The notes under the pieces are model-generated. The model saw only the letters and a list, made by a program, of their open reading frames with translations, was not told where the DNA came from and searched no databases. This document shows positions 3,369 through 27,550 of a stretch of 64,000 bases of DNA, piece by piece. Numbering within the stretch: position 1 is the stretch's first letter; every line of letters starts with the position of its first letter. Source of the DNA: a virus. A program made the position numbers and the translations under genes. The stretch is taken from IMG/VR virus record IMGVR_UViG_3300048573_000442; one strand, 5' to 3'.

Positions 3369-4018
3369 AATTAAAACAATTATTCGGATTCTCGTTTTCG
3401 ACCTCAAAAGAAAAAGTTGAAAACGTTCTTAAGAAATACAAAATCACAAACTATACAATCAATGACGATCTGTCTGTTGATGTGGATGAGGATATAGATT
3501 TTCGTGGTTCAAATTTAAAAAGATTTCCAATCAAATTTGGCAAAATAAAGGGAAATTTTAATTGTTCTAACACCCAGTTGGAAACGCTTAAAGATGGCCC
3601 GAATGAAGTCAGCGAAAACTTTTACTGTCACAATAACCAATTAGTATCTTTGGAAGGTGCGCCAAAAGAAGTGGGCGGGAGTTTTTGGTGCATGAAGAAC
3701 GAATTGATTTCTTTGAACGGTTCACCAAGGGAAGTAGGCGGGGATTTCAACTGCGACTTAAACCGACTAGCATCCTTACGGGGGGCCGCGCGTGAAGTGG
3801 GTGGCGCATTTGGCTGCGAGAGTAATGAACTGCAGACTTTGGAAGGATGCCCTCGCATTGTAGGCGGGGATTTTTATTGCTCTAAAAACAAATTAACATC
3901 TTTGCACGGCGCACCTAGAGAAATTGGCGGGGATTTTAATTGCCGTTTTAATCCAAATTTGACCTCACTTGACGGGATCGGCAATGTTGCCGGAGAAATT
4001 GAAAGCGATCTATCATGA
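3365..4018 (+). CDS. LRR-like repeat protein 2 (7 repeats, most divergent)
   Basis: Same caps and repeat; MKLKQLFG leader. Confidence 0.9.
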   Translation: MKLKQLFGFSFSTSKEKVENVLKKYKITNYTINDDLSVDVDEDIDFRGSNLKRFPIKFGKIKGNFNCSNTQLETLKDGPNEVSENFYCHNNQLVSLEGAPKEVGGSFWCMKNELISLNGSPREVGGDFNCDLNRLASLRGAAREVGGAFGCESNELQTLEGCPRIVGGDFYCSKNKLTSLHGAPREIGGDFNCRFNPNLTSLDGIGNVAGEIESDLS

Positions 4019-4788
4019 AATTAAAACAGCTGTTTGAATCAGTGTCTAAACAAGATGTGGAATCCATCTTAAAGAAATACGGGATTAAGAACTATACCAT
4101 CAATGATGACATGTCAGTCGATGTTGATGGGGACGTGAAGCTAAATAATAATCACTTAAGTTCGATTCCTGTTAATTTTGGGAAAGTAAGTGGGCATTTT
4201 TGGTGTCATAAAAACCAATTAACTTCTTTACAAGGTACACCTAAAGAAGTCGGTAAGGATTTTGATTGTTCTCACAACCAATTAACTTCTTTACAAGGTG
4301 CTCCTGGGGAAGTTGGTGGCGGCTGTTTTAATTGCCACAACAACAAATTGACCTCTTTACAAGGTGCACCTAGAGAAATTGGTGGAAGTTTTTGGTGCGC
4401 TGATAACAAATTAACTTCTTTACAAGGCGGGCCAAGAGAAGTCGATGGGAGTTTTTCGTGCGCTAGTAACCAATTGTCCTCTTTACAAGGCGCTCCAAGA
4501 GAAGTTGGTGGGCATTTTTATTGCTCTAAAAACAAATTGACCTCTTTACAAGGTGCTCCTAGAGAAGTTGATGGGCATTTTTATTGCTCTAACAACCAAT
4601 TAACTTCTTTGCAAGGTGCTTCAAGAGAAGTTGGCGGAGGGTTTTGGTGCCATAATAACCAATTAACTTCTCTACAAGGCGCACCTAAGGAAGTCGGTGG
4701 GGATTTTAATTGCTCTAACAATCCGAATTTGGCATCACTTGACGGAATCGGCAATGTTGCCGGGCACATTTTTAGCAATCTATCATGA
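4015..4788 (+). CDS. LRR-like repeat protein 3 (9 repeats)
   Basis: Same caps and repeat. Confidence 0.9.
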   Translation: MKLKQLFESVSKQDVESILKKYGIKNYTINDDMSVDVDGDVKLNNNHLSSIPVNFGKVSGHFWCHKNQLTSLQGTPKEVGKDFDCSHNQLTSLQGAPGEVGGGCFNCHNNKLTSLQGAPREIGGSFWCADNKLTSLQGGPREVDGSFSCASNQLSSLQGAPREVGGHFYCSKNKLTSLQGAPREVDGHFYCSNNQLTSLQGASREVGGGFWCHNNQLTSLQGAPKEVGGDFNCSNNPNLASLDGIGNVAGHIFSNLS

Positions 4789-5492
4789 AATTAAGGCAAT
4801 TATTCGAATCTACATCTAAGCAAGATGTAGAATCCATCTTAAACAAATATAAAATAGCAAACTACGCTATCAATGATGACTTATCAGTAGATGTCGATGG
4901 AGATGTGGATCTGAGTAATAAGAAGTTAAGTTCGATTCCTGTTAATTTTGGGAAAGTAAGCGGAATTTTTGACTGCTCTAACAACCTGCTAACCTCTTTA
5001 CAAGGCGCACCTAGGGAAGTTGGTGGTGATTTTAATTGCTCTTATAGCCAGTTAACTTCCTTACAGGGTGCTCCTACCATAGCCTATGGTAATTTTATTT
5101 GCTCTGCCAACCAATTAACATCTTTGGAAAGGGCACCTAGGGAAGTAGGTGGGGATTTTATTTGCTCTAATAACCGTTTGATTTCTTTAAAGGGTGCACC
5201 TAGAGAAGTTGGAGGGCATTTCAGTTGCGCGCGTGCCAAACTGACATCTTTAGAAGGTGCACCTAGAAAAGTAGGTGGGAATTTTTGGTGTGTTAGCAAC
5301 CAATTGCCCTCTTTACAAGGCGGGCCTAAAGAAGTTGGTGGGGATTTTAACTGTAATAGTAACAAATTGACCTCTTTACAAGGCGCACCAAGAGAAGTTG
5401 GTGGGAGTTTTTGGTGCCGCAACAATCCGAATTTGACCTCACTTAACGGAATCAGTAATGTTGGCGGAGACGTTTTTAGCGACATAAAATGA
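4785..5492 (+). CDS. LRR-like repeat protein 4 (8 repeats)
   Basis: Same caps and repeat. Confidence 0.9.
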   Translation: MKLRQLFESTSKQDVESILNKYKIANYAINDDLSVDVDGDVDLSNKKLSSIPVNFGKVSGIFDCSNNLLTSLQGAPREVGGDFNCSYSQLTSLQGAPTIAYGNFICSANQLTSLERAPREVGGDFICSNNRLISLKGAPREVGGHFSCARAKLTSLEGAPRKVGGNFWCVSNQLPSLQGGPKEVGGDFNCNSNKLTSLQGAPREVGGSFWCRNNPNLTSLNGISNVGGDVFSDIK

Positions 5493-6265
5493 AATTAAAA
5501 CAATTATTTGAATCAGTTGCAGTCCCTAAACAAAAAGTTGAATCCATCCTTAAAAAATACAGGATCGAGAATTACGCCATTAATGATGACTTGTCAGTAG
5601 ATGTCGATGGAGATGTGGATCTAAGCTACAAGAAGTTAAGTTCGATTCCTGTCAATTTTGGGAAGGTTAGTGGCAGTTTTTATTGCTCTGACAACAAATT
5701 GACTTCTTTAGAAGGTGCACCGAGAGAAGTCAGTGGGGATTTTGATTGCACTCATAACCAATTAACTTCTTTACAAGGTTCACCTAGAGAAGTAGGCGGG
5801 CATTTTTACTGCTATCATAACCAATTAACTTCTTTACAGGGTTCACCTAGGGAAGTCAGCGGACATTTTTGGTGCTATAGCAACCAATTAACCTCTTTGC
5901 AAGAAGGTCCTAGAGAAGTCGGAGGGAATTTTAATTGCTCTGATAACGAATTGGTAACCATGCAAGGTTCACCTAGGGAAGTAGGCGGGCATTTTAACTG
6001 CTCTACCAACAAATTGACTTCTTTACAAGGTGCACCTAAAGAAGTAGGTGGGGATTTTAGGTGCTCTGGCAACCAATTAACATCTTTGGAAAGGGCGCCT
6101 AGAGAAGTTGGTAAGGATTTTATTTGCTCTGATAACAAATTAACTTCTTTACAAGGCGCACCTAGAGAAGTTGGTGGGCATTTTTTTTGCTACAACAACG
6201 TAAATTTAAAATCACTTGACGGAATCGGTAATGTAGCCGGAGAAATTGAAAGCGACCTATCATGA
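5489..6265 (+). CDS. LRR-like repeat protein 5 (9 repeats)
   Basis: Same caps and repeat. Confidence 0.9.
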   Translation: MKLKQLFESVAVPKQKVESILKKYRIENYAINDDLSVDVDGDVDLSYKKLSSIPVNFGKVSGSFYCSDNKLTSLEGAPREVSGDFDCTHNQLTSLQGSPREVGGHFYCYHNQLTSLQGSPREVSGHFWCYSNQLTSLQEGPREVGGNFNCSDNELVTMQGSPREVGGHFNCSTNKLTSLQGAPKEVGGDFRCSGNQLTSLERAPREVGKDFICSDNKLTSLQGAPREVGGHFFCYNNVNLKSLDGIGNVAGEIESDLS

Positions 6266-6969
6266 AATTAAAACAATTATTTGATTCAACTTCTAGACAA
6301 AAAGTTGAATCTATCCTGAAAAAATATAAAATAACGAACTACGTCATTAACGACGACTTGTCTGTAGATGTCGATGGGGATGTGGATTTGGATAGTAAAC
6401 GCCTAAGTTCGATTCCTGTTAATTTCGGAAAAGTTAGTGGGAGTTTTGATTGCTATAAAAACAAATTGACCTCTTTACAAGGTGTTCCGAGAGAAGTCGG
6501 TAAGGGTTTTGATTGTTCTCATAACCAATTAACATCTTTACAAGGTGCGCCTGGGGAAGTTGGTAGGGATTTTAACTGCTCTCATAACCAATTAACTTCT
6601 TTACAAGGTTCACCTAGGGAAGTCAACAGACATTTTTGGTGTTCTCACAACCAATTAACTTCTTTGCAAGGAGCACCTAGAGAAGTAGGTGAGCTTTTTA
6701 CTTGCGCTAATAACCAATTAACATCCTTACAAGGTGCACCTAGAGAAGTCGGTGGAGAGTTTTACTGCTATGGTAACAAATTGACCTCTTTGCAGGGTGC
6801 TCCTAGAGAAGTTGGCGGAGGGTTTTGGTGCAATAATAACGAATTGACCTCTTTGCAGGGTGCTCCTAGAGAAGTTGGTAAGGATTTTTGGTGTGGCAAA
6901 AATCCGAATTTGAAATCCCTTGACGGAATCGGCAATGTTGCCGGAGAAATTAAAAGCGACATAAAATGA
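6262..6969 (+). CDS. LRR-like repeat protein 6 (8 repeats)
   Basis: Same caps and repeat; MKLKQLFD leader. Confidence 0.9.
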   Translation: MKLKQLFDSTSRQKVESILKKYKITNYVINDDLSVDVDGDVDLDSKRLSSIPVNFGKVSGSFDCYKNKLTSLQGVPREVGKGFDCSHNQLTSLQGAPGEVGRDFNCSHNQLTSLQGSPREVNRHFWCSHNQLTSLQGAPREVGELFTCANNQLTSLQGAPREVGGEFYCYGNKLTSLQGAPREVGGGFWCNNNELTSLQGAPREVGKDFWCGKNPNLKSLDGIGNVAGEIKSDIK

Positions 6970-7622
6970 AATTAAAACAACTATTTGAATCAGTTGCAGC
7001 CCCTAAACAAGAAGTTGAATCTATCCTAAAGAAATATGGTATCGAAAACTACACCATAAATGATGACTTGTCAGTAGATGTCGATGGAGATGTGGATCTA
7101 AGTAATAAACACCTAAGTTCATTTCCAGTGAATTTCGGAAAAGTTAGCGGGAGTTTTGATTGCTCTGACAACAAATTGGCAACTTTAGAAGGCGCACCAA
7201 GAGAAGTCGGCGGGGATTTTATCTGCTCTTCCAACAAATTGGCCTCTCTAAAAGGAGCGCCTAGAGAAGTCAGCGAGATTTTTAATTGCTCTTATAACCA
7301 ATTAACTTCTTTGCAAGGAGCGCCTAGAGAAGTGGATATAGATTTCATTTGCTCTTATAACAAATTAGCTTCTCTAAACGGCTCGCCAAGGGAAGTCGGT
7401 GGGAGCTTTTATTGCTTTAAAAACCAATTAACATCGCTAAAAGGAGCTCCTTGGGAAGTCAGCGAGAATTTTGATTGCTCTGACAACAAATTGACGACTT
7501 TAGAAGGCGCACCTAGAGAAATAGGTGGAAATTTTTATTGTTATGATAACCCAGATTTAAAATCCCTTGATGGAATCGGTAACGACAGCGTTGCCGGAGA
7601 AATTGGAAGCGACATAAAATGA
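6966..7622 (+). CDS. LRR-like repeat protein 7 (7 repeats)
   Basis: Same caps and repeat. Confidence 0.9.
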   Translation: MKLKQLFESVAAPKQEVESILKKYGIENYTINDDLSVDVDGDVDLSNKHLSSFPVNFGKVSGSFDCSDNKLATLEGAPREVGGDFICSSNKLASLKGAPREVSEIFNCSYNQLTSLQGAPREVDIDFICSYNKLASLNGSPREVGGSFYCFKNQLTSLKGAPWEVSENFDCSDNKLTTLEGAPREIGGNFYCYDNPDLKSLDGIGNDSVAGEIGSDIK

Positions 7623-8515
7623 AATTAAAACAATTATTTGAATCAACTTCTGGACAAGAAGTTGAATCTATCCTAAAGAAATACGGTATCGAAAACTACA
7701 CCATAAATGATGACTTGTCAGTAGATGTCGATGGAGATGTGGAGTTAAATAATAATAGCTTAAGTTCAATTCCTGTCAATTTTGGGAAAGTTAGCGGCAG
7801 TTTTAATTGCCTTTTTAACAAACTGGCTTCTTTGCAAGGCGCACCAAGAGAAGTCGATGGAGATTTTATTTGCTCTCATAACCAATTAACTTCTTTACAA
7901 GGCGCGCCAAGAGAAGTCGGAGGGAATTTTTATTGCTATCACAACAAATTAACTTCTTTGCAAGGTGCTCCTGGGGAAGTTGGTGGAAATTTTTATTGCT
8001 ATCGCAACAAATTAACCTCTTTGCAAGGTGCATCTAGGGAAGTGGGTGGGAGTTTTGATTGCTCTGAAAACCAATTAACATCCTTACAAGGTGCACCGAG
8101 AGAAGTAGGCGGGGCTTTTAATTGCTCTGGCAACCAATTAACATCCCTACAAGGTGCACCTAGGGAAGTAGGTGGAAGTTTTTATTGTTATCACAACAAA
8201 TTAACTTCTTTACAAGGCGCATCTAGGGAAGTTGGTAGGGTTTTTGATTGCTCTTATAATGAATTAATGTCCTTACAAGGTGCACCTAGAGAAGTGGGTG
8301 GGAATTTTGTTTGCTCTCATAACCAATTAACTTCTTTGCAGGGTGCACCGAGAGAAGTTGGCGGGAGTTTTTATTGCGGTAGCAATCATTTGTCCTCTTT
8401 GCAAGGAGCTCCTAGGGAAGTTGGTGGAAATTTTTATTGCTCCAAAAATTCAAATTTGTCCTCACTTGACGGGATCGGCAATGTAGCCGGAGAAATTGAA
8501 AGCGACATTAAATGA
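7619..8515 (+). CDS. LRR-like repeat protein 8 (11 repeats)
   Basis: Same caps and repeat; 298 aa = 235 + 3x21. Confidence 0.9.
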   Translation: MKLKQLFESTSGQEVESILKKYGIENYTINDDLSVDVDGDVELNNNSLSSIPVNFGKVSGSFNCLFNKLASLQGAPREVDGDFICSHNQLTSLQGAPREVGGNFYCYHNKLTSLQGAPGEVGGNFYCYRNKLTSLQGASREVGGSFDCSENQLTSLQGAPREVGGAFNCSGNQLTSLQGAPREVGGSFYCYHNKLTSLQGASREVGRVFDCSYNELMSLQGAPREVGGNFVCSHNQLTSLQGAPREVGGSFYCGSNHLSSLQGAPREVGGNFYCSKNSNLSSLDGIGNVAGEIESDIK

Positions 8516-8557: not shown

Positions 8558-9406
8558 TTATTTCATGTGTTCCGAAAGGTCTTGCCAACTTTTAATTTCG
8601 GGATTAGTTTCTACCAGCTTACGCATTTTGTCCCACACGTTTTGCGGGATAACAATTGCGCCGCCGTCAAACCATACTTCCTGATGTTTCTCTGAATGTC
8701 TAAGAGTTGCTGGAGTACACGCATGCATTTGCAGTTTAGAAGGTGAGTATGCGTCTAAAATTGTTTCTAAAAAATGTTTACGGAAATCGTCGTTCTGCAA
8801 CAGTTCCGAATAATCACTTTGTTGTATTCGTTCGTATGCTTCGCTATCTACATCGCGTATTTGCACATCGAACTGTTCCAGCGATTCAAATGGGTCAGTT
8901 CCTGTGTCCAGTCCTGTATTCAGACCTGTCTCTACAAAGGCAGCCAAATAATCATTCATTTCATTAATTGGTTCCAAATTTCCAAAAAGATCAATAATCT
9001 TTTCCCAGATGTCAAGATCGCCGACTTCTCCGATTTTTGCGTTTTTAACCGGGAGCACAATGTATCTCTCATCGCCAAAACCCTTAGCGTAGGCTAAATT
9101 TGTAGTGCATATCATTGATTGACTTCGCTTAGGAAAATCTTTCATCTCTGGGTGATTATCGAAAATGGTTGTGTACCAATTGGATGTATTTTGGCTTTTG
9201 CGTTTTGTCTTTGTCAAATCAACATAGGAAAAACCTAAACCAGCTCTCATGCCCCGATAGAATGGCTGCTGTTCTTTGAGCATCCAGAATAAATCTGGGC
9301 AATGTTCGTTCAAGTAAAAGGTGATAGGACGAGTAGTAAGCGGTTCAAACACCTGTTTAAGTGAACCTTCTGCTTTTGCTTCTAAGAATGTTTTAAATGT
9401 TTTCAT
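8558..9406 (-). CDS. putative ADP-ribosyltransferase-like protein (R-S-E type), capsid-targeting-like leader
   Basis: MKTFKTFLEA; FYRGM, SMICTT..YAKGFG, QEVWF motifs. Confidence 0.55.
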   Translation of the reverse strand: MKTFKTFLEAKAEGSLKQVFEPLTTRPITFYLNEHCPDLFWMLKEQQPFYRGMRAGLGFSYVDLTKTKRKSQNTSNWYTTIFDNHPEMKDFPKRSQSMICTTNLAYAKGFGDERYIVLPVKNAKIGEVGDLDIWEKIIDLFGNLEPINEMNDYLAAFVETGLNTGLDTGTDPFESLEQFDVQIRDVDSEAYERIQQSDYSELLQNDDFRKHFLETILDAYSPSKLQMHACTPATLRHSEKHQEVWFDGGAIVIPQNVWDKMRKLVETNPEIKSWQDLSEHMK

Positions 9407-10247
9407 TTTTCATAGCTTCCGATAAATCTTGCCAATTTCTAATTCGTTTTTTGCTTGATCTATACATACTTCTCATTTTGTTCCATTCGTCTAATGGAAT
9501 AATAATGGCACCAGTATCAAACCACACCTCATGCCCTATATAAGTCAGTTCTTCGATTTCGCCAAATGCGGACCCATCAATCCGCAGCACTTTCGGCGAA
9601 TACGCCTTCAAAATTGATTCCAAGAACAAATTTGTAAATTCGGTCTTCTCTAATAGGGACGAATATTTGCTGTTTTTAAGTCTTTGAAAAACTTGGCTAT
9701 TTACATCTTTTATTTGGCGGTCAAATTCCTGCAGAAGCCCAAACGAGCATTTTTCTGTTTTTAGTCCACATTGAATGATTCCGGAAAAGAAATCATTCAT
9801 TGTTTTTATTTCTACTTCATCCCCAAAAATTTTAATCCAAAGGTCCCAAATGTCCGACACGTAAATTTCTGCTACTTTAGCATTTTTAACTGGCAGGATA
9901 GCATATACCTGACTTCCAAATCCATGTGCATAATCGAAATCGGTGGTACAAATCATAGACTCGCTTCTTTTCGGGAGATGACTCATTTCAGGATGATTGT
10001 CAAATATTTCCGTGTACCAATTAGAAGAGTTTTGGCTTTTACGTTTTGTCCCTGTCAAATCAACAAATGAAACACTTAGACCTGATCTCATGCCACGGTA
10101 CAGAACTGCTTTCTCCGTCAGCGCCCAGAACGTATCGGGGCAATACTTATTTAGGTAGTAGGCAGCTGGATGTTCCGTAAGGGGCTGATACACTAGCGAA
10201 GCAGAACCTTCTGCTTTTGCTTCTAGGAATGTTTTAAACGTTTTCAT
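9393..10247 (-). CDS. putative ART-like paralog
   Basis: MKTFKTFLEA; LYRGM, SMICTT..YAHGFG, HEVWF. Confidence 0.55.
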   Translation of the reverse strand: MKTFKTFLEAKAEGSASLVYQPLTEHPAAYYLNKYCPDTFWALTEKAVLYRGMRSGLSVSFVDLTGTKRKSQNSSNWYTEIFDNHPEMSHLPKRSESMICTTDFDYAHGFGSQVYAILPVKNAKVAEIYVSDIWDLWIKIFGDEVEIKTMNDFFSGIIQCGLKTEKCSFGLLQEFDRQIKDVNSQVFQRLKNSKYSSLLEKTEFTNLFLESILKAYSPKVLRIDGSAFGEIEELTYIGHEVWFDTGAIIIPLDEWNKMRSMYRSSKKRIRNWQDLSEAMKNENI

Positions 10248-10825
10248 AGTACGGTTCCTTTAACAATTGAATTAATTGCGTTTATAACAGTTGAATGTTG
10301 AACAACTTCAAAATGGTTTGTCGCTAATAGCAATTCATCCGTTGGCTTTACGCATCTTTGGGATTTTACTGATACAACTCCATCATTAGCATTAGCCATA
10401 AACGGCGATCCTCCGCCAGTAGTTACTACATTTAGCCAACGGCATGGAGGAATTATATTTCTCGAGTATGCAACTGAATTGCTATAAGGTGCTAAATCTT
10501 TCATGACTAGCAATTTTGGAAATGCATAACGTAAAAAGGCAGCAGCGTTATGCCCGCCGAACGGTGTTGATATCGTAATAATTCCGACAACATTTGGGTC
10601 TTCGCAGGCGATACGATGTGCCAAAATTCCACCCAAACTATGTGCAACAATAAAGTATTTTTGGGAAAGTTCTTCATGCTTAATAGCGTTATGCACGCTG
10701 TCGATTGATTGCGTGCTGTCGTATTCAGCAACAATTGGAATATGATCTTGTATCTGGGAAATAATGTGATTAAACACAATTCCAGAGCTATTAAATCCGT
10801 GAATGTAAAGAATTGTGGGTTTCAT
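10244..10825 (-). CDS. alpha/beta hydrolase (lipase/esterase-like)
   Basis: YIHGF oxyanion loop, AHSLGG nucleophile elbow, ISTPFGG, NDGVV, NHF. Confidence 0.85.
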   Translation of the reverse strand: MKPTILYIHGFNSSGIVFNHIISQIQDHIPIVAEYDSTQSIDSVHNAIKHEELSQKYFIVAHSLGGILAHRIACEDPNVVGIITISTPFGGHNAAAFLRYAFPKLLVMKDLAPYSNSVAYSRNIIPPCRWLNVVTTGGGSPFMANANDGVVSVKSQRCVKPTDELLLATNHFEVVQHSTVINAINSIVKGTVL

Positions 10826-11072
10826 TTAGGATGTTATGTTCGGGTATTGTTAATTTGCCAGCAGAGATTAGATCTCTTCTAATGACTATTAGTCTAGTCA
10901 ATTCTTTAGACAAATGGGATATTTGATCTGAAGTTGATTGGCGATTATATTTTTGAACGTATTTGTTAATCGCATCTTGAGTCATATAGTTAATGACATC
11001 GGAGTAATGATTTATCCGTTCGCTATCAACCACAAAAGCGGTTTTAACTTTTTCAGTAATAATCTTTGACAT
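10791..11072 (-). CDS. hypothetical protein
   Basis: 93-aa ORF overlapping both neighbours in a dense operon. Confidence 0.55.
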   Translation of the reverse strand: MSKIITEKVKTAFVVDSERINHYSDVINYMTQDAINKYVQKYNRQSTSDQISHLSKELTRLIVIRRDLISAGKLTIPEHNILNETHNSLHSRI

Positions 11073-11835
11073 GTTTCTGTAAATCTTGCCAATCGTCTAT
11101 ATTGATAATGACTGCGCCTTTATCAAACCAAACTTCCCCCTGAATTATTTTCGAGGATTCAAGTGTTGCGGTAGTTTTTGCCAGTAGGCCAGTTTTTCTA
11201 GGAGAATATGCATCAAATAATTCTTTAAGAAAATCGCTTGAAATGACACGTTTATATTTTTCGGCAAAACGCAATCTTTCAATAATTTCACCGTTTTTAT
11301 TTTTTAGGGCTTCATCGAATTTTACCAATGCATTAAAACAGGATTCATCTTCTTCATCATAATCAAGCAGGTTTTTTAAAAAATAATTTGCGTCGATCAG
11401 TGAAAGCGATTTCCCGAATAGGGTTGTCCTAAGATCCCACATGTCCTGTTCGCCAACTAAACCTATTTTTGAACCGTTTACAGGAATCACTGCAAATACT
11501 GATCCAAACGCACTTGCATAACCTTTAGATGTGGAGCAAATTATAGATTTGCTACGTTTGGGAAAGTCCTGCATTTCGGGGTGATTATCAAAAATTTCAG
11601 TATAAAAATTATTGGTGTTTTGGCTTTTCCTGGCCGTCCTTGCCAAATTGACAAAAGCAGGAGGATGATCCCATTGTAGCTTCCCGAATCCCCGATAAAA
11701 TGGTTTATCTTGCTCGATCATCCATAAAGAATCAGAACAATGCCTTTTTAGAAATTCGTGTATGTGATCAATTGGTTCAAATACCTGTTTAGGCGAATCT
11801 TCCGCTTTTGCTTCTAAGAAAGTTTTAAATTTCAT
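11053..11835 (-). CDS. putative ART-like paralog
   Basis: MKFKTFLEA; FYRGF, IICSTS..YASAFG, QGEVWF. Confidence 0.55.
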   Translation of the reverse strand: MKFKTFLEAKAEDSPKQVFEPIDHIHEFLKRHCSDSLWMIEQDKPFYRGFGKLQWDHPPAFVNLARTARKSQNTNNFYTEIFDNHPEMQDFPKRSKSIICSTSKGYASAFGSVFAVIPVNGSKIGLVGEQDMWDLRTTLFGKSLSLIDANYFLKNLLDYDEEDESCFNALVKFDEALKNKNGEIIERLRFAEKYKRVISSDFLKELFDAYSPRKTGLLAKTTATLESSKIIQGEVWFDKGAVIINIDDWQDLQKHVKDYY

Positions 11836-12808
11836 TTTTCAATTTCTCACTGATAAAGTGGGCGACAGATTTAGTCACTAAAATCACAGGACCGCCAATC
11901 CATAATTCTGTCGTACAGTGAAGGTCAAATAAACTAGAGGGCATATTAGCCGTAGTAAAAACTGTATGCTCTGTTGCCTCCGCAGAATATGCTTCCCAAA
12001 TATGATCCAAGAAATGATCCAAGCATTCCGTCGGTGCATTATTAAAAACACTCATGAAAAGCGCAACTGCCGGTTTATTCCTATCCTTCAGTAGTCTGTC
12101 GAATTCTTGAAAACTTTCAAGCGTCTGTTTCAATTTTAAAGCTTCAAACAAATGATTAAAGTGTTCGATATTCCGGTGGGTCCCGAAAAGATTGATTCGG
12201 GTTTGCCACATATCATCATTATTCACTGCACCCATTTTTACTCCATTAAATGGAATAACAACAATATCCTCTCCTTTTGCAGTACTTCCATAACCACTTG
12301 CAATTTTCGGACATGTAGTTGCTATGAAAGAGGCGCTGCGTTTGGGGAAATGGGCCCTTTTTGGATTAGCATCCAAAAGCATATTATAGAAGTTGCCAGC
12401 GCTAATGCTCTTCCTAGAAGTCAACGTCGGATCTGAAACAACTGCACCTGTTGCTAATAGATCGGCCTTCGGGCTTTGGCCGGAAATGCCTCGCCATATA
12501 AACTTTGCGTCCTTTAGAAACGGGACAAAATCTGACGCCTTTTGGCGAATGAGATCTAAGGTTTCATCAAGGGGTTTAGGTTCATAAACAGGCTTTGATT
12601 CCTTTAAGAACTCTGAGAATCTTAAACCTTCTTTTAAGCCCATCATTCGTTTAGTTATTGCCATTCTAAGTGCCCAATGTCTAGGATCATTTTTATCATA
12701 GTCGTATTCAGAACTGATAATTTCTTCAGCTTTATCCCAAAGATGTTCTGCTCTATCAAGAGGTATTTTTGCTTTTTTAGCTAAATGTTTTAGTGCAGTA
12801 AGTGGCAT
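11825..12808 (-). CDS. putative ART-like paralog with extra N-terminal helical domain
   Basis: About 60-aa basic N-domain, internal LRFSEFLKE, then IWRGI, FIATT..IASGYG, TELWI. Confidence 0.5.
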   Translation of the reverse strand: MPLTALKHLAKKAKIPLDRAEHLWDKAEEIISSEYDYDKNDPRHWALRMAITKRMMGLKEGLRFSEFLKESKPVYEPKPLDETLDLIRQKASDFVPFLKDAKFIWRGISGQSPKADLLATGAVVSDPTLTSRKSISAGNFYNMLLDANPKRAHFPKRSASFIATTCPKIASGYGSTAKGEDIVVIPFNGVKMGAVNNDDMWQTRINLFGTHRNIEHFNHLFEALKLKQTLESFQEFDRLLKDRNKPAVALFMSVFNNAPTECLDHFLDHIWEAYSAEATEHTVFTTANMPSSLFDLHCTTELWIGGPVILVTKSVAHFISEKLKNEI

Positions 12809-12809
12809 T

Positions 12810-13466
12810 TTAAAAGTCAGGAAATTGTGGAGGTGGGGCGAAATTTGACGTGTATCTTGCTATTCCACTAGTAAACCTGAAATCGTCAATATATCCAGTA
12901 AAATATTTTGAAACAGATGTATATGCACCAAGTTGGAAATCTCCAGTTGCAAAATCAGTGTTTGCAACTGATGCCACCAAAATGCCATTTTGGTACAATC
13001 GAGTATTTGGGGAATCCAAAACGACCGCAACATGAACCCATTCATTTATTGGCAATGGAGCATTTGCTGTCGCCAAAACGGGAACGACATTTCGTTTGCC
13101 TATAACAAGATTTCCGCTTATTGTTTCCAATGTCAGCCCGCTACCGCTAACAGAAAAAAGAATCCCGACGTCAGAGGCAACGGTTTTATAAAGCCAGAAT
13201 TCAATCGTAAACTTGCTACCAAATAATGACATCGTATTTGACGGTCTAGTCAAATACGATGAGCCGTTTAAATATAGGGACGCTGCGCCAAATTGTTTTT
13301 CTGAGCTACTAATAACTGGGGCCCCAATGCCCGTCCAAACTCCACTTGCCGAATCACCAAAGTTTGAATCAAAGCGTAATAGGCTGATTACGTTAGTCCA
13401 AAATGGATCTGGTGGTTGTGCAGTTGATTGGTAAATTGCGCGGATGAGAACTGAAATGTCTAGCAT
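12810..13466 (-). CDS. LamG/concanavalin A-like lectin domain protein
   Basis: DPFWTNVISLLRFD, FTIEFW, EWVHVAVV, FTGYIDDFRFTSGIARYTSNF; start moved to the internal Met at 13466. Confidence 0.8.
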   Translation of the reverse strand: MLDISVLIRAIYQSTAQPPDPFWTNVISLLRFDSNFGDSASGVWTGIGAPVISSSEKQFGAASLYLNGSSYLTRPSNTMSLFGSKFTIEFWLYKTVASDVGILFSVSGSGLTLETISGNLVIGKRNVVPVLATANAPLPINEWVHVAVVLDSPNTRLYQNGILVASVANTDFATGDFQLGAYTSVSKYFTGYIDDFRFTSGIARYTSNFAPPPQFPDF

Positions 13467-13473
13467 AATTAGT

Positions 13474-13956
13474 TTATTCTTTATTAAAGTCGTCCCAAAT
13501 TTCTTTATCTGCTTTTCTAGCAGGCCCGCCAACAATAAACGAATTCACTCGAGCCATCGCCCATTGTGCTTGGGCAACACCCGGTCTATGCCCAGTTCTC
13601 CAAGCTGCAGAACCCTTATTGAACACTCGCCGTAAAATAGATACGGGAATTCCTGTTTTTTCAGACTTATTCTTGAGCGCAACGTCAATATTTGAAGACT
13701 CGCCAAACAGCTCTTCATACTTTTCAGTATGTTCGCTTTTTGGTATAGATTTTCCTGCCGACTTCAACTGTTTCTTATATTTCCTATCAGCGGTCCAGTT
13801 GTCAGGATAAGCTTTTGGATCTTTATGGTCAAGACGTTTAAACTTATCAATTTCTTTTGACATCTCTTTTTTCAGGGGAGGTTTGTTTTTTGCCCCCTTA
13901 AAATCCAAATACTTTGGATTTGTCTCAGAAATGAACTGTTTAAACGTTATCGTCAT
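13474..13956 (-). CDS. conserved phage protein (DUF5824-like), capsid-targeting-like leader
   Basis: MTITFKQFISE; ALKNKSEKTGIP..L..VFNKG.AAWRTGHRPG...QWA.ARVNSF motif recalled from T4-like phages and giant viruses. Confidence 0.6.
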   Translation of the reverse strand: MTITFKQFISETNPKYLDFKGAKNKPPLKKEMSKEIDKFKRLDHKDPKAYPDNWTADRKYKKQLKSAGKSIPKSEHTEKYEELFGESSNIDVALKNKSEKTGIPVSILRRVFNKGSAAWRTGHRPGVAQAQWAMARVNSFIVGGPARKADKEIWDDFNKE

Positions 13957-13958
13957 GA

Positions 13959-14213
13959 TTATTTTGCTGGCTTAACAACGTCTTTAAACACTACGCCTTC
14001 AGAACCATCCCATTCGCCGACGCCGATAGTCTCCTTGCGCTTATACGGCTTAGTTCCAATGAAAGCATTGCAGATGTCCTGGTCTCCATCAAACCAAGCA
14101 CCTGGCTGATATTTGCGAACGGCAGTTTTCCATGAACTATAAGTCGTGTAAACAGTTTCCCCCATATGGTTCTTTGCTTCTTTAAGATTTACTAGTTGTT
14201 TTAGTAATTGCAT
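13959..14213 (-). CDS. hypothetical protein
   Basis: MQLLKQLVNLKE leader; GATAAATA upstream. Confidence 0.7.
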   Translation of the reverse strand: MQLLKQLVNLKEAKNHMGETVYTTYSSWKTAVRKYQPGAWFDGDQDICNAFIGTKPYKRKETIGVGEWDGSEGVVFKDVVKPAK

Positions 14214-14242
14214 TTTTGTGCCTCTATTGGTTAAATGTATAT

Positions 14243-14539
14243 TTATCTCTTGTCGTAATTAACGTGTATTACTTTTGCTTTAATTACGCCAAGGCCCTGA
14301 AGTATATGTTTTTTCAACCGCAATGTCAACTTTTCAGACAGGTCTTTTTGAAAGCCTAGATCCCTAGGTCTGTCTGCACAATCCGTCCTGAACTCTATAA
14401 CAGTTTGTGGCCCCTCATCTAATAAATGGATGCTAAAGATCTTACAAGCAATGAGTTCTTCTTCAGCAATGTGGTGCAGCATGTTTTCCCATTTTTTAAG
14501 GTGTTCTTCACGCTTAAGGAATTCTTTAAATGTCTTCAT
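14243..14539 (-). CDS. hypothetical protein
   Basis: MKTFKEFLKREE leader; ATGA-coupled to upstream gene. Confidence 0.7.
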   Translation of the reverse strand: MKTFKEFLKREEHLKKWENMLHHIAEEELIACKIFSIHLLDEGPQTVIEFRTDCADRPRDLGFQKDLSEKLTLRLKKHILQGLGVIKAKVIHVNYDKR

Positions 14540-15186
14540 AAAATTTCTGCCAATCTTGGTTTAATGACATCATAAAATAGATTGCTTAAAGTATCTATTT
14601 TGTAATACTGCTTGCATTTCAAATGAATTTCATTGCCGTTATCGATGCATTCTTCAAGCTCTTCATTTACATTCCATCTAGCGTGTGAAAATTTTTTAAC
14701 TAGCATGTCTGCTGCCATAGTCTGACGCTGATCATAGTTGTATTGGTTTTCTTTATCAGCTGCGAATATTTTGCCAGATAAATAGGCTGAAGAGCCGTAT
14801 GCGTCTTTAAATGCGTCCTTGCCCGTATCAGCATTACAAACCCATTGAAATTCCCCAATTGGGAAAATAGCAAATACCTTTCCGTATTGTCTAGCATCGT
14901 TTTGTTGACCAGTAACAAACATCCAATTTCGAATAGGCTCGCCGACTAAATCAACAAAAAAATCATTCATTTTATCATGCAAGTACGTGCTTGAATCCCT
15001 AGGCCCGCCACGTAGCCTAAAATCCCTGATCTCCCAATCGGCAGACCCTCCAGATTCAGAGCCGCGATACATCAATTTGTTTCCGCCGGTTCCTTTTAGT
15101 TGCTTAAATAAAAATGAGCAGTCTTCTTCAAATCGTTTAAGATCAAAAGATTTTTGTTCGTTTAGGAAAGTTTTAAATGTTTTCAT
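14536..15186 (-). CDS. putative ART-like paralog
   Basis: Start moved to MKTFKTFLNE (15186); MYRGS, MFVTG...ARQYG, NEIHL. Confidence 0.45.
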   Translation of the reverse strand: MKTFKTFLNEQKSFDLKRFEEDCSFLFKQLKGTGGNKLMYRGSESGGSADWEIRDFRLRGGPRDSSTYLHDKMNDFFVDLVGEPIRNWMFVTGQQNDARQYGKVFAIFPIGEFQWVCNADTGKDAFKDAYGSSAYLSGKIFAADKENQYNYDQRQTMAADMLVKKFSHARWNVNEELEECIDNGNEIHLKCKQYYKIDTLSNLFYDVIKPRLAEIL

Positions 15187-15880
15187 ATTTAACCCATGGG
15201 TCGTTGATGACAATAGTTCCGTCTTCAGCAATCATAAAATTGCTGCTGTGTAAATCGTTTTGGAACCCGTTCTTGCGCCCAATTTGGACGACATCGAATA
15301 TAGTAGAGGCCAATTTAACTAATTGCTGTTGGCCCATATGGAGTATGAGGTACTCCAAACCTGATGAAATCTCTAGTGCTGTTCTCGTAAAAAACATTTT
15401 GCCTTTTCTTGCAAACAGCGACTGATTATCAATTTCTAAGGCAGCTGGATGTTCTATATAGGTCGTAACAGCTTTAAGATATTCGATCTTTTTGTTGTTA
15501 AATGCGTCTACCTCTGTTGATAAGAACCCAAGTGCGATGCCAGTGTGTTCTGATATAGAACCCATCTCAAAAAGGCGTTCAGATTTTGCTATTAGCACCT
15601 TGGTGCCAGTCTCTGAGTTAACAATTGTTTCCGGGGCGCCAATATCAGGGATAAATTGGTTATTTTTATTTGCCAAACAGTATTTTAGCCACTTGACAAA
15701 TACGCTTGACCTCGAATCGTTTAGTGGACCGATCGCCAACAACACTTCATGTTTTTCATTCATCCAGACCGTCTTATCATATCCACTAGCTTCCATGAAA
15801 TAGCCGCGATCCCTCATTAGATGAAACAACCAAGAACTATCATCAGGTGAAAAATCAGATTCAAATAGGCGATGTTTCAT
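15173..15880 (-). CDS. protein kinase-like (T7 gp0.7-like) 1
   Basis: Start MKHRLFE (ATGA-coupled); ASGYDK, YC..NKNNQFIPDI, DLHSSNFM, INDPW. Confidence 0.75.
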   Translation of the reverse strand: MKHRLFESDFSPDDSSWLFHLMRDRGYFMEASGYDKTVWMNEKHEVLLAIGPLNDSRSSVFVKWLKYCLANKNNQFIPDIGAPETIVNSETGTKVLIAKSERLFEMGSISEHTGIALGFLSTEVDAFNNKKIEYLKAVTTYIEHPAALEIDNQSLFARKGKMFFTRTALEISSGLEYLILHMGQQQLVKLASTIFDVVQIGRKNGFQNDLHSSNFMIAEDGTIVINDPWVKYENI

Positions 15881-16605
15881 TTGTACCATCCATCGGCTTT
15901 CTTTACAAGTACCTCTAATGGGATGATATTTGGCGACAAATATTTCTCAGCCTCTTCTCGCATCTGTTTTAAATATCTTTTCCCTACAGGATTTTTCAAA
16001 GGCTCACTAAAAAACCCCTGAACAGATTTAAAAATTTTCAAGATGGCTTTGTCGTCAAGGGCGCCATCATTTTCAACCTGCTTAAAAAAATCAACTTTCG
16101 CCTGTAGAAACTTTGCGTTTTCCAAATTGACTTCACTGACTTTGCGAATAAATTCTGCGTCAACTTTTCGTCCAGAAATATCAGTTCGAGATTTTGCCCT
16201 TTTAAGAGATGTTTCCAAGCTTGCGTGAACAAACACTACTCCTACATCATATCCTATAGATTCAAGAATGCCTATGCGATGCAATATTTGGGAAACATTA
16301 TTCGAAGTGCTATCAACAAACAGTGGCAGCATCGAATTCATATAGCCTGTTAAAGATTTTTTTGTGATTTTAATCGATGAATCTCTTAATTCGGGCCACG
16401 TTTCAGAGGATACTTCCTTATCAAGTTTAAAGGCCATGAATTCGGTTGCAATGTCAGTATTGACTACTTTTGGGGAAATTTGCCCCCTTAGGTTCCTGAC
16501 TGTGTAACTCTTGCCGGCACCTGGCAAGCCAATCACGAAAACAGCTTTAAGAATGCCAGCATCATTAATGCCTTCTGTTATGTAGGTTTTGAAATTTGTT
16601 GTCAT
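15877..16605 (-). CDS. P-loop kinase (AAA_33/zeta-toxin-like)
   Basis: VFVIGLPGAGKS Walker A, VNTD, FVDST, R..SR lid; MTTNFKTYITE leader. Confidence 0.75.
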   Translation of the reverse strand: MTTNFKTYITEGINDAGILKAVFVIGLPGAGKSYTVRNLRGQISPKVVNTDIATEFMAFKLDKEVSSETWPELRDSSIKITKKSLTGYMNSMLPLFVDSTSNNVSQILHRIGILESIGYDVGVVFVHASLETSLKRAKSRTDISGRKVDAEFIRKVSEVNLENAKFLQAKVDFFKQVENDGALDDKAILKIFKSVQGFFSEPLKNPVGKRYLKQMREEAEKYLSPNIIPLEVLVKKADGWYK

Positions 16606-16609
16606 AATT

Positions 16610-17290
16610 TTAAAAGGATGCCCATGGATCGGTGATAACTAAAGTGCCGTCTGAAGCAATCATAAAGTTACCGGAATGTAAATCTAGAAAGCCGCTGCTA
16701 GGAGTTGCATTAATAATATCTATTAAAGTTCCTAGCAAAAAGTCAAAATCCTCGACGCTTAACACCAATAGCGCCATGCTTTCGGTAATATCCCCACTTG
16801 CTTCTAATCTAGCTTTTGCGTCCGCAATGACTTTTGATTTTAGGTCTTTTTGTAAAATGCTAGTAGAGCCAATAGCACTAGTGCAAGCTTTCACAAGTTC
16901 ATGAATTGCTTCTCGTATCTGGCTGAGTTCGGAAGAGACTTCAAACAAGCGTTCGATGTTGGCGACGATAAACTTCTCACCGCTTATAGTAAGTGGTTTT
17001 GAAAAACTAATATTTGGTAAATGGGGATTGGATGAATGTTGAAAACAAAAACTTACCCACTTTTTGAAATTGGCTGTTTCCCTATAGCTTTCGTCATGTT
17101 GGATTATTTTGACGTTATGTGTTTTTGGATTAACAAATGCTGCTTTAAAAGCGCCAGCTCTCAAAAATTTGTAACCTAAGCCTTTCATATGTTCTAAAAG
17201 AATGCTGCTTCTTCTAGATTCATCATTAAAATCCTGTTCTTCTGTGCTGATGGACTCGACCAAATATTTTTTGAAATTGCGCGCCATCAT
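16610..17290 (-). CDS. protein kinase-like (T7 gp0.7-like) 2
   Basis: MARNFKKYLVE; RAGAFKAAF, VK, FC.QHSSNPHLPNI, DLHSGNFM, ITDPW. Confidence 0.8.
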   Translation of the reverse strand: MMARNFKKYLVESISTEEQDFNDESRRSSILLEHMKGLGYKFLRAGAFKAAFVNPKTHNVKIIQHDESYRETANFKKWVSFCFQHSSNPHLPNISFSKPLTISGEKFIVANIERLFEVSSELSQIREAIHELVKACTSAIGSTSILQKDLKSKVIADAKARLEASGDITESMALLVLSVEDFDFLLGTLIDIINATPSSGFLDLHSGNFMIASDGTLVITDPWASF

Positions 17291-17985
17291 TATGCCCATG
17301 GGTCAGTTATGACTATTGTTCCGTCTTCGCCAAGCATGAAATTTCCTGGATGCAAATCGAGAATTGAGTTACTAGGTGAAAAATCAATAATGTCTATTAT
17401 GGTCCCTATCAAAGAATCGATATCTTCAACACTTAATAGCAGTAATGAATGAGCATCATTTTCAAATTCGTCATTGGAGCCAAAATTTTCAAGAGAGCTT
17501 TTTATTTCAGCTATTAATTCGTCTCGGGGTTTATTTTTGCCGCCGCTCGAAGCTCTTGATGTTTCGCATAAATCCGCAATTTCAGTCAACGCGAAACCGA
17601 TAGAAACAATACTAGAACTGTCTATCGAAAATAGTCTTTCAATGGTGGCAATCTGAAACACATGCTTCGTGCCATCTTCACCTCCTATTTTTAACGGGCG
17701 ATCAAGTTTTATAATCGGGAGATGCGGGTTGTTCTTATGTTGTTTGCAAAAATCTATCCAGCGAGTAAAAGTACTAAATGAAGCTGGATTATTCTTGTAC
17801 AAAATTATTTTTGTCGAGCTAGAATCCATATACGCAGCTTTTTCAACCCCACTGCCGAGAAATTTGAACCCGTTTAGAACCATATATTTGTGCAAAGCAA
17901 AAGCACGTTCGCGATCAGCGAAACTCCCCGATCTCAAATACTTGGGGGCTTCATGGCTTTCGGCTAGAAAATGTTTAAAGTTCAT
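17290..17985 (-). CDS. protein kinase-like (T7 gp0.7-like) 3
   Basis: Start moved to MNFKHFLAE; LGSGVEKAAY, FCKQHKNNPHLP, DLHPGNFM, ITDPW. Confidence 0.8.
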   Translation of the reverse strand: MNFKHFLAESHEAPKYLRSGSFADRERAFALHKYMVLNGFKFLGSGVEKAAYMDSSSTKIILYKNNPASFSTFTRWIDFCKQHKNNPHLPIIKLDRPLKIGGEDGTKHVFQIATIERLFSIDSSSIVSIGFALTEIADLCETSRASSGGKNKPRDELIAEIKSSLENFGSNDEFENDAHSLLLLSVEDIDSLIGTIIDIIDFSPSNSILDLHPGNFMLGEDGTIVITDPWA

Positions 17986-18028: not shown

Positions 18029-18928
18029 TTATTCCTCACGCGATTTGATTTCAATGACAACAGCTTTAAACAATTCTATCGGTACAAGGAAAGCCTTCCC
18101 AGAAAACCAGCACTCCCTACTCTCCGGCAGCTTATCCCCATAATTCGCAACTGACAGATTGAGCGAATCAGGCGTGAATACTGCATCAGCTATCGCCTGA
18201 GTTAGGTTGCTGTGATTCTGTGTGATAAACTCACGAATGTACGTAACGCTTACATTCGGGAAAGTGCGGACAAACGCATCTATTACATCGTCAATAGGGG
18301 CTTTAGCAATAGTCTCTTGAAATTGATGCAAACTGACAACGCTTTCGTATCTATTGGCCAAAGGCAAAGTATGTGTTCCTACTCTATTCACAAACACAAA
18401 AAGTTTGTCACTAAGGTAATCTAACGGCACTTCGCGGCCGAAGAAGTTAACATCGCAATTTAGGAAATCGCGCTTATCACAAAATGTAATTAACGAACTT
18501 GAATTTTTCCCAACCGGGACCACCACTGAAACCGCTCCGTACGAACTAGCAGATGATAGAGAAGTAGAGCAGATGAGAGATTTTGAACGATCTGGAATTC
18601 CTGCCTGATTTAACGGCCCTGAAATTGCCATCATCAATTGATACACGTTGTCAGTATCTTTCGACGTTCTTATGCCAGTAGATGAATCAATATACGATAG
18701 TTTCGGCGCTCTTGGGCTGCTGAGGTCCCTTGAGCTTTTTGAACTCCCTCGATATAAAATGCCGCCATTTTTTAATGCTGATAAGAATCCTGGGCAATGC
18801 TTAAGCAAAGCGTCAGTTGCACTCACGATATCCTTTTCATTGAAGTGTTCAGACTTATTCAATAAGGTCCTTTTTCTCCATGCCTTCACTACGGCTTCAT
18901 TCAGTGCAAGTATTTCTGCCAATTTCAT
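18029..18928 (-). CDS. putative ART-like paralog
   Basis: MKLAEILALNE; LYRGS, LICSTS..ASSYG, RECWF. Confidence 0.55.
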   Translation of the reverse strand: MKLAEILALNEAVVKAWRKRTLLNKSEHFNEKDIVSATDALLKHCPGFLSALKNGGILYRGSSKSSRDLSSPRAPKLSYIDSSTGIRTSKDTDNVYQLMMAISGPLNQAGIPDRSKSLICSTSLSSASSYGAVSVVVPVGKNSSSLITFCDKRDFLNCDVNFFGREVPLDYLSDKLFVFVNRVGTHTLPLANRYESVVSLHQFQETIAKAPIDDVIDAFVRTFPNVSVTYIREFITQNHSNLTQAIADAVFTPDSLNLSVANYGDKLPESRECWFSGKAFLVPIELFKAVVIEIKSREE

Positions 18929-21607: not shown

Positions 21608-21615
21608 TATTTATG
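21608..21615 (-). promoter_or_regulatory. late promoter (CATAAATA)
   Basis: NATAAATA 26 nt upstream of 21582. Confidence 0.6.
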
Positions 21616-22403: not shown

Positions 22404-23216
22404 TTAATTTAGGCTATCTAAGAATGAACTATACGCTGTTGTAACAGGAACTCCTGACTTTGCAATCAAGTGAAACGGGACTAAAATATATCCATCAGAA
22501 TCATAGAAGAATATTTCGTTGCGCGACGTAATTGCTTCGGCAAAGCTTTCGTTGTTCTTATAATAATCTAGAGCAAACAGCTTTATCGCCTTAATAAGAT
22601 CAGCGTGCTTTAGCTTTAAAATATTTCTATCTGAGCATTTACGAGCAGCTGCTTCTGTATGTTGTTCGGCATTTCCGTCGAGATTGTGAACCCAAACAGC
22701 TGATGAAACACTTCCTATAATCGTGAAAAGATTTTCAAAGAACTCGATTAGTTCAAAAGCCGTAATAGGGAATTTACTACGCGGCAACAAATCCCTAATA
22801 CTTTCGGCAAAAAACTCAAGGCCTCCGTCTTCGCCAACATAAGAATCTTGTAGTTTTTTAGACCATGCCCACTGAAAATTTCCACATGGGAAGCAAAATG
22901 CTAAATGTTTTGCGTACTTAGAGGCCTCTGTCAAGGAACCGACTGCAAAAAAGGATCGTTGGCGAATATCAGGTATGCCATATGCAGCGTCAATTGCGGC
23001 GTTGAATGCGAAACTGAATTCTTGGCTTGAATCTCTTGGCGGACGGTATTTGGGATGCGGAATTATTAAAGCTTTTTCAACAGGCCTACTTACAGATCTG
23101 AACAATGCTTTGCCATCAGACAGCGCTAAAAATGGTTGACAGTGTTGCTTAATCAGCTCTGAGGCGTTTTTAAGTAGGTCGTCCTGCTCTGTCAAAAATT
23201 GCCTAAACTGGGTCAT
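22404..23216 (-). CDS. putative ART-like paralog (divergent)
   Basis: MTQFRQFLTE; LFRS, IRQRSFFAVGS..EASKY, NEIFF. Confidence 0.45.
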   Translation of the reverse strand: MTQFRQFLTEQDDLLKNASELIKQHCQPFLALSDGKALFRSVSRPVEKALIIPHPKYRPPRDSSQEFSFAFNAAIDAAYGIPDIRQRSFFAVGSLTEASKYAKHLAFCFPCGNFQWAWSKKLQDSYVGEDGGLEFFAESIRDLLPRSKFPITAFELIEFFENLFTIIGSVSSAVWVHNLDGNAEQHTEAAARKCSDRNILKLKHADLIKAIKLFALDYYKNNESFAEAITSRNEIFFYDSDGYILVPFHLIAKSGVPVTTAYSSFLDSLN

Positions 23217-27088: not shown

Positions 27089-27550
27089 CTATGTGTTTAC
27101 AATTTCGCCGTCCACGTTCCCGATTCCGTCAAGCGTTTTCAGCATCGGATTGTTAAAGCACCAAAAATCTCTACCAACTTCTCTAGGTGAACCTTTTAAA
27201 GATGTCAATTGGTTTTCAGAGCACTTAAAGCTCCCACCGACTTCTCTTGGGGCACCTTGTAAAGAGATCAATTTGTTGGCATGGCACCAAAACCCTCCGC
27301 TTACTTCTCTCGGCGCACCTTGTAAAGATGCCAATTGGTTGCCAGAGCAATCAAAATATTTTGTTACTTTGCCAAATTGAACAGGGATTACAGTTAAAGA
27401 CTTCCCATATAAATCTACTCCGCCATCCACATCAACAGTCAAGTCATCATTGATTGCGTAGTTCGTTATTTTATATTTATTTAGGATCGATTCAACTTCT
27501 TCTTTAGAAGAAGGAAATCTGGTATTTTCAAACAGCTGTTTTAACTTCAT
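27089..27550 (-). CDS. LRR-like repeat protein 9 (4 repeats)
   Basis: MKLKQLFE leader, same caps and 21-aa repeat as the array. Confidence 0.9.
   Translation of the reverse strand: MKLKQLFENTRFPSSKEEVESILNKYKITNYAINDDLTVDVDGGVDLYGKSLTVIPVQFGKVTKYFDCSGNQLASLQGAPREVSGGFWCHANKLISLQGAPREVGGSFKCSENQLTSLKGSPREVGRDFWCFNNPMLKTLDGIGNVDGEIVNT

Follow-up and report, generated by a model that had tools for sequence, protein, structure and literature searches.

Could a phage deliver kinases of the T7 gp0.7 type to its host from inside the capsid, as the virion cargo of a T4-type head? The question is raised by a cluster of genes in a 64,000-nucleotide stretch of the IMG/VR virus record IMGVR_UViG_3300048573_000442, the whole of which is referred to below as the window. 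Here, four minus-strand open reading frames (ORFs) lie back to back at positions 15173-17985, with stops and starts that overlap or abut, and encode three paralogous mini-kinases, which we call K1, K2 and K3, together with a P-loop kinase. The genes and their N-terminal leaders are as follows.

17290-17985, minus strand: K3, 231 amino acids (aa); leader MNFKHFLAE, codons 17959-17985; match to phrog_15752 at E 6.8e-9.
16610-17287, minus strand: K2, 225 aa; leader MARNFKKYLVE at 17255-17287; match to phrog_15752 at E 1.6e-9.
15877-16605, minus strand: P-loop kinase, 242 aa; Walker A motif GLPGAGKS; leader MTTNFKTYITE at 16573-16605.
15173-15880, minus strand: K1, 235 aa; short leader MKHRLFE at 15860-15880; match to phrog_15752 at E 1.8e-7.

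We propose that K1-K3 are kinases of the type of the T7 gp0.7 kinase (T7K) that would be made late, packaged into the phage head and injected with the DNA to phosphorylate host proteins, a reading to which we give a probability of roughly 0.55. It is a combination of two known things, namely T7K-type kinases and the cargo that phage T4 loads into its head by means of a capsid-targeting sequence (CTS).

The relationship to T7K is visible in shared motifs. A preliminary description of the locus, made from the sequence alone, had listed a glycine-rich loop (G-loop), FC..H..NPHLP.I, ERLF, DLH(S/P)(S/G)NFM and I(T/N)DPW in the three paralogues, and all of these are seen in our alignment, where K1-K3 can be aligned over their full length with 44 invariant columns (44% identity between K2 and K3, and 29-31% between K1 and either of them). 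The T7 gp0.7 motifs AFCRMYQGRPGIPNV, FDMHSGNIM and ITDP(V), to which they had been likened, are genuine and colinear with K2 by BLASTP, the match falling into two colinear segments, one from the G-loop to FC..NP.LP and the other from D-x-H-S-G-N-x-M to ITDP. In this register, G76 of T7K lies on the family-invariant G45 and D213-P214 on the invariant D220-P221; a G76F substitution leaves T7K catalytically dead, and its DPV at 213-215 is the equivalent of the DFG motif (PMC13645617). The T7K landmarks, that is the G-loop glycine, the beta3 lysine, D-x-H-x-x-N and the DFG-like D-P, align to K2 as G45, K60 (in the beta3 strand VKII), D202-L-H-x-x-N207 and D220-P-W, with DPW replacing DPV. K3 has the G-loop GSGVEKAAY, beta3 TKII, DLHPGNFM and ITDPWA directly before its stop, while K1 has a G-loop lysine, DLHSSNFM and INDPW and lacks the beta3 lysine (VLLAI).

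Profile comparisons point the same way. The profile search that had been suggested as a check gave significant matches of all three proteins to phrog_15752, at the E values listed above, and the same profile was matched by 66 of 66 family members tested (best E 6e-15). When a profile of these 66 sequences was compared with T7 gp0.7 by hhalign, the match had a probability of 94.8% and E 5e-8, with lysine on lysine; together with the structural matches in BFVD given below, this bears out the gp0.7-like identity first assigned to the paralogues. The homology of K1-K3 to the kinase domain of T7K is remote but solid and well supported, and enzymatic activity is predicted from it. In general libraries, a Pfam scan of K1-K3 found no family above E 0.05, NCBIfam gave nothing for the three, and a search of the PDB sequences with the family profile hidden Markov model returned nothing below E 0.5.

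The predicted structures describe an unusually short kinase. An AlphaFold (AF2) model of K2 (pLDDT 75, pTM 0.73), compared with BFVD by Foldseek, has as its top matches the protein kinases of Autographiviridae and the RaK2 entry H6X4G3, with probability 1.0 and E 5e-10 to 1e-4. In a VIA search of 48,161 PDB chains, which does not depend on Foldseek, the top 50 are nearly all protein kinases at Z 6-8, DRAK1, Mps1, PknB, PknE, PpkA and YabT among them, and the alignments stop at DFG. In this layout an N-lobe is followed by a short stretch of helix and then by the D-L-H-x-x-N catalytic loop, and a D-P-W comes at the extreme C-terminus. As the chain ends 0-6 residues past this DFG-like D-P-W in nearly every member of the family (6 or fewer in K1-K3), the activation segment, the alpha-F to alpha-I lobe and a counterpart of the T7K shut-off domain are all absent. 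In some family members the core forms the C-terminal part of a longer protein (300-1100 aa), or two cores stand in tandem (P0005, 458 aa).

How such enzymes might reach the head is suggested by their leaders. The preliminary description had placed the leader on all four genes; it is present in full on K3, K2 and the P-loop kinase, whereas K1 has only the short and degenerate MKHRLFE, which still ends in L-x-E. The start of K1 is likely the ATG at 15880, not that at 15889 as first read, because the former overlaps the upstream stop as ATGA. Orthologues of K1 start with MRQKITE, which is near the type of T4 Alt. Leaders of neighbouring genes include MKTFKEFLKRE, MKTFKTFLNE and MTITFKQFISE, and about 26 ORFs of unrelated kinds are tagged in the window, among them ten leucine-rich-repeat (LRR) proteins, seven ADP-ribosyltransferase (ART)-like proteins, a DUF5824 protein and small ORFs. 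The CTS of T4 is MKTYQEFIAE (PMC8442874); it is cut once by gp21 and is enough on its own for the head to take up foreign proteins (PMC8442874; PMC3012670), and the packaged T4 enzyme Alt is cut at ITE-6, with the removal of six residues (PMC5694885). In the 66-member kinase alignment the leader glutamate is at least 90% conserved. The leader stands at the start of 72 of 106 kinase matches (from 79 IMG/VR loci) and, in the form M-x-T-F-K-Q-F-I-S-E, at that of 109 of 120 P-loop kinase homologues; it is disordered in both AlphaFold models, those of K2 and of the P-loop kinase. Two proteins of the head are of particular relevance here.

41445-42059, minus strand: T4 gp21-type prohead protease (phrog_207, E 1.6e-55; 34% identity to T4 gp21, E 5e-21).
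38059-39303, minus strand: T4 gp23-type major capsid protein (phrog_138).

The capsid protein reads H-L-R-E39 and then TAG, within two columns of the maturation cut of T4 gp23 at L-T-E65/A66. The simplest reading, inferred from these sequences, is that the leader would be a portable head-targeting tag that the protease can remove.

The two proteins belong to a T4-type head and tail module in the window, in which the capsid protein (phrog_138) and prohead protease are accompanied by portal, scaffold, sheath, tube and gp4-like head-completion proteins, and the source is an uncultured jumbo myophage whose head is of the T4 type. Its capsid protein is 62% identical to that of Ralstonia phage RsoM2USA (344 kb) and 41-55% identical to those of other jumbo phages. 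RsoM2USA, the phage with the closest capsid protein, has no homologue of the kinase family, the nearest of the virus records searched (G001, 13 kb) is likewise without one, and at the DNA level megablast matched the locus to none of 50,697 phage records.

A late time of expression is suggested by promoter-like motifs. Counting both strands, the window has 25 copies of the heptamer ATAAATA, which forms the core of the T4 late promoter TATAAATA, and 15 of the 25 sites are sense-oriented and no more than 60 nt upstream of gene starts, where about 0.8 would be expected (binomial P ~1e-16); the enriched sites lie 29-58 nt upstream. The exact TATAAATA is not over-represented window-wide (5 against 3.1 expected), the enrichment being visible only once position relative to gene starts is counted. 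Sites stand ahead of the tube, protease, neck and other head-module genes and of the LRR array, and this concentration of ATAAATA marks what we predict to be T4-type late promoters in an uncultured jumbo phage. Two such motifs lie on either side of the kinase genes.

21608-21615, minus strand: late-promoter-like CATAAATA, about 30 nt upstream of the tail-tube gene and the nearest one upstream of the kinases.
14240-14247, minus strand: late-promoter-like GATAAATA, downstream of the kinase string and ahead of the ORF at 13959-14213.

Between the two motifs runs a gap-less string of tube, two gp4-like genes, a 148-aa ORF, an ART-like gene, K3, K2, the P-loop kinase, K1, a second ART-like gene and a 98-aa ORF, whose sole terminator-like site, a weak one with a stem of 5 bp, falls within K3 at 17922-17908.

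Late expression and packaging, both inferred and supported only indirectly, are well motivated because the leader is CTS-like and conserved in two unrelated kinase families, a gp21-type protease is encoded and a late-promoter-like motif lies upstream. The kinase genes would be transcribed late with the tail-tube operon, and a leader of 7-11 residues ending in (L/I/F)-x-E would direct each of the proteins to the prohead's scaffolding core, in the manner of the CTS in T4. The gp21-type protease would then cleave past the leader glutamate, leaving mature acidic enzymes of ~24-26 kDa to be retained in the DNA-filled head. On infection these would enter the cell with the DNA and use host ATP to phosphorylate host proteins before phage gene expression, the likely targets, by analogy with T7K, being defence proteins and proteins that handle nucleic acids. 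The P-loop kinase, having the same leader, would be co-delivered, and the cassette also contains tagged ART-like proteins that could travel with it.

T7K disarms several bacterial defence systems by mass phosphorylation, for which transcription and translation are needed first (PMC13645617); a version preloaded in the capsid would be at work as soon as the DNA enters. Retron-Eco9 and DarTG1 are among the defence systems known to be sensitive to T7K. The known T4 precedents for injected enzymes or inhibitors are Alt and IPI* only. More tentatively, and at somewhat below even odds, T4-like jumbo phages may load their capsids with T7K-type kinases, a P-loop kinase and ART-like proteins, such that host proteins are modified within seconds and before transcription. 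If this is true, the injected set would disarm defences that an early-expressed T7K reaches too late. The conserved leader also offers an easy way to predict from sequence which proteins uncultured T4-like phages would inject.

The cluster can be compared with three known systems. It resembles T4 CTS cargo in having a short leader ending in (L/I)-x-E that is common to unrelated proteins of one phage and accompanied by a gp21-type protease, and also in the idea of a head-borne enzyme or inhibitor that is injected and works ahead of phage gene expression. The T4 cargo proteins, however, are not homologous to K1-K3, and the predicted cargo here is far larger, at ~26 tagged ORFs in 64 kb. To our knowledge there is no kinase among the T4 cargo; we found no relevant report in the literature on capsid-targeting sequences and kinases or on kinases among jumbo-phage ejection proteins, and no paper describing tagged mini-kinases.

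With T7K itself, K1-K3 have in common a homologous core with the G-loop glycine, beta3 lysine, D-x-H-S-G-N-x-M, a DFG-like D-P-x and the helix FC....NP.(I/L)P, and both families, that of T7K (phrog_15752 / phrog_2828; PF27024) and that of K1-K3, are essentially phage-only. T7K differs in being the product of an early gene, in its C-terminal DNA-binding shut-off domain and in its lack of a leader, whereas K1-K3 are bare cores with a T4-type leader, encoded in a string of structural genes, in three copies and adjoining a P-loop kinase. The published T7K homologues of jumbo phages (Munch, G17) have lost the shut-off domain and do not conserve the valine of DPV, and their function remains to be elucidated (PMC13645617). 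The third system, Kinase-PolyVal (PF18762), consists of truncated kinases in the polyvalent proteins of phages and conjugative elements, likewise small kinase-fold domains of mobile elements that are thought to be delivered into a recipient. Only 3 of 66 family members match it, and weakly (best E 8.4e-5), and none of K1-K3 does; moreover, K1-K3 are free-standing, whereas Kinase-PolyVal domains lie inside a giant polyvalent protein.

The family to which K1-K3 belong is large and almost wholly metagenomic, an exhaustive profile search yielding 1246 cluster representatives at E<=1e-3, of which 252 reach E<=1e-10 (the clusters being formed at 50% identity), most of them 200-230 aa long. In the 66-member alignment, with K2 numbering, G45, C81, E112, N207, D220 and P221 are invariant and K60, D202 and H204 are at least 90% conserved. 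The gene order tube, two gp4-like genes, ART-like, kinase(s), P-loop kinase, ART-like is conserved in seven other loci, namely a 59%-identical Logan contig (L002) and the IMG/VR loci L003, L017, L022, L030, L038 and L072, each with one to three kinases and always with a P-loop kinase nearby. T4-type structural genes lie within 10 kb of the kinase in at least 18 of 79 IMG/VR loci, and another family member directly follows gp13, gp15 and a sheath gene.

In a maximum-likelihood tree, K1-K3 and the orthologues from L002 and L072 form one clade (100/98) with the topology K1 + (K2, K3), and each paralogue groups with its own orthologues; the triplication is therefore older than the split of the three phages. 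One ancestral kinase would have been tripled before this phage and its two relatives diverged, and K1 would have lost its beta3 lysine afterwards. At L072:8942-9705 two overlapping ORFs (8942-9517 and 9502-9705) stand in place of an intact K2 orthologue, through either a frameshift or an assembly error.

The state of K1 deserves separate treatment. Its degenerate VK lysine region had been noticed from the start and is confirmed, the beta3 lysine being absent both from K1 (VLLAI) and from a 56%-identical orthologue (IALVV) and present in K2 (VKII) and K3 (TKII). The pseudokinase that had been read into this goes too far, as every other catalytic residue is kept: K1 and its orthologue retain the invariant glycine, the G-loop lysine, D-L-H-x-x-N and D-P-W, for which reason we reject a simple pseudokinase call. 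K1-K3 all have a G-loop lysine (G-x-x-K-[AT]-[AV]-[FWY]) at a position where the wider family has glutamine. WNK kinases take their catalytic lysine from the G-loop strand, and by analogy K1 may use its G-loop lysine as they do. An atypical active kinase is, judging by these residues, at least as likely a description of K1 as a pseudokinase.

The Walker A kinase reported between the paralogues is equally real, scoring 41.3 bits against AAA_33 (gathering threshold 27) and 40 against Zeta_toxin (22.3). It has 276 close homologues, 50-73% identical, many of them on contigs of 140-340 kb, and K32, S33, D51, D98, R136, R140 and R146 are invariant in 36 homologues. The model (pLDDT 86) has its best TMt, 0.71, with Clostridium thermocellum polynucleotide kinase (PNK), at a root-mean-square deviation (rmsd) of 3.9 A, and further matches to adenylate kinases, dephospho-CoA kinase and PSTK. 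By its sequence and predicted fold the protein is of the AAA_33 / Zeta_toxin / PNK type. Common to that group are the Walker A GxxGxGKS, an invariant aspartate 19 residues past the Walker lysine, the lid arginines and the fold of C. thermocellum Pnkp, while the window protein is set apart by its capsid-targeting leader and a C-terminal helical extension of ~60 residues. No antitoxin-like neighbour was recognised, no search having been aimed at one. In phrog_12810 a P-loop part is fused behind an ART-like part.

Several observations weigh against packaged T7K-type kinases. The K1 leader is short and degenerate, and the start codons of the kinase genes are not certain; for K2, further in-frame ATGs lie at 17290 and 17299. 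At pI 5.2-5.6 the kinases are acidic, unlike the basic internal proteins of T4. The VIA Z scores stay below 8, which is middling by the scale of the tool, and Foldseek found nothing in the PDB at E<=0.001, its weak matches (E ~2e-3) being headed by 5-methylthioribose (MTR) kinase and APH. Precomputed matches to Pfam PF27024 (Phage_T7_kinase) are faint and fall only on two L002 orthologues. A tblastn search of the 50,697 phage records with K2 and a typical family member (P0022) found no cultured-phage homologue. Finally, the T7K homologue of Salmonella phage Munch (CPT_Munch_521), the sole cultured jumbo-phage relative examined, lacks the leader and is surrounded by small hypothetical genes, away from any recognisable structural module; packaging is therefore not general to the T7K homologues of jumbo phages.

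The acidity of the proteins, in which they differ from T4 IPI-III, would also suit kinases that are made late and remain cytoplasmic in the producing cell, acting there on phage assembly or on host proteins, in which case the N-terminal motif would be no packaging signal and could instead be a translation-initiation context or a recombination module spreading between genes. We consider this unlikely, since the leader is conserved at the protein level, with a P1 glutamate kept in at least 90% of members that are ~25% identical, recurs on the unrelated P-loop family and matches the experimentally defined T4 CTS nearly residue for residue, and since both a gp21-type protease and an L-x-E site in the capsid protein are present; a very short leader, moreover, does not prevent T4 Alt from being a packaged enzyme (PMC5694885). 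The substrate is a separate matter from the location. Late, packaged kinase-fold enzymes could act on something other than protein, either a small molecule, as do APH, MTR kinase and choline kinase, or a nucleic acid, as does the archaeal tRNA kinase ArkI, and the substrate class might then be that of the neighbouring PNK-like P-loop kinase. MTR kinase, amicoumacin kinase and APH are indeed the first Foldseek matches in the PDB, TkArkI appears in both structure searches (Foldseek PDB and VIA), the adjacency of kinase and P-loop kinase is conserved, and it is with the C. thermocellum polynucleotide kinase that the P-loop model has its best TMt (0.71) and lowest rmsd. Such a substrate nevertheless seems to us decidedly unlikely: the sequence and structure matches to T7K, an experimentally proven protein kinase, and its relatives are much stronger, Hanks-type protein kinases top the VIA list, and Pfam APH (PF01636) gives no match to K1-K3 at E<=1 and only a weak one (E 0.044) to 1 of 66 members. 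The helical substrate-binding subdomain of APH and choline kinase is also absent, because the chain ends 0-6 residues past the DFG-like aspartate.

There is, lastly, a slim chance that one or more of K1-K3, and K1 above all, are catalytically dead and serve as binders, decoys or head-internal filler. This would fit the absence from K1 and its orthologue of a beta3 lysine that is at least 90% conserved in the family, and the length of the stem branch of K1, which at 1.43 exceeds all others in the tree. It would be surprising, though, for a non-catalytic pair at 56% identity to have kept the invariant glycine, D-L-H-x-x-N and D-P-W; the G-loop lysine is present in all three paralogues, and K2 and K3 have every catalytic residue. 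Packaged T7K-type kinases that phosphorylate host proteins are the reading that we prefer.

Several other gene groups surround the kinases. The seven ART-like paralogues lie on the minus strand at these positions.

8558-9406, minus strand: ART-like paralogue.
9393-10247, minus strand: ART-like paralogue.
11053-11835, minus strand: ART-like paralogue.
11825-12808, minus strand: ART-like paralogue.
14536-15186, minus strand: ART-like paralogue.
18029-18928, minus strand: ART-like paralogue.
22404-23216, minus strand: ART-like paralogue.

They have a (Y/W/F)RG ... STS/CTT-like signature, match phrog_12810 or phrog_11975 and are mostly tagged, with leaders such as MKTFKTFLEA, MKTFKTFLNE, MKLAEILALNE and MTQFRQFLTE; they are possibly Alt-like ADP-ribosyltransferases. 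The ten LRR-type paralogues, at 2724-8515 on the plus strand and at 27089-27550 and 29419-29946 on the minus strand, all start with a version of the leader, MKLKQLF(E/D/G)S, and the LRR array is preceded by an exact TATAAATA at 2674-2681. The DUF5824 protein (13474-13956, minus strand; Pfam E 9e-20) has the leader MTITFKQFISE and matches phrog_3041, annotated as a cytidyltransferase, in the C-terminal part of the latter.

Two genes of the cargo cassette, at 10244-10825 and 12810-13535 on the minus strand, are leaderless. One of these is alpha/beta-hydrolase-like and starts with MKPTILYIHGFNSSG, and the other matches domains that occur in giant virion and baseplate proteins (phrog_24074, E 7e-29). 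Inside the head module, by the capsid gene region, lies a 501-aa HNH/homing-endonuclease-like gene (35340-36845, minus strand; phrog_3339, E 5e-78).

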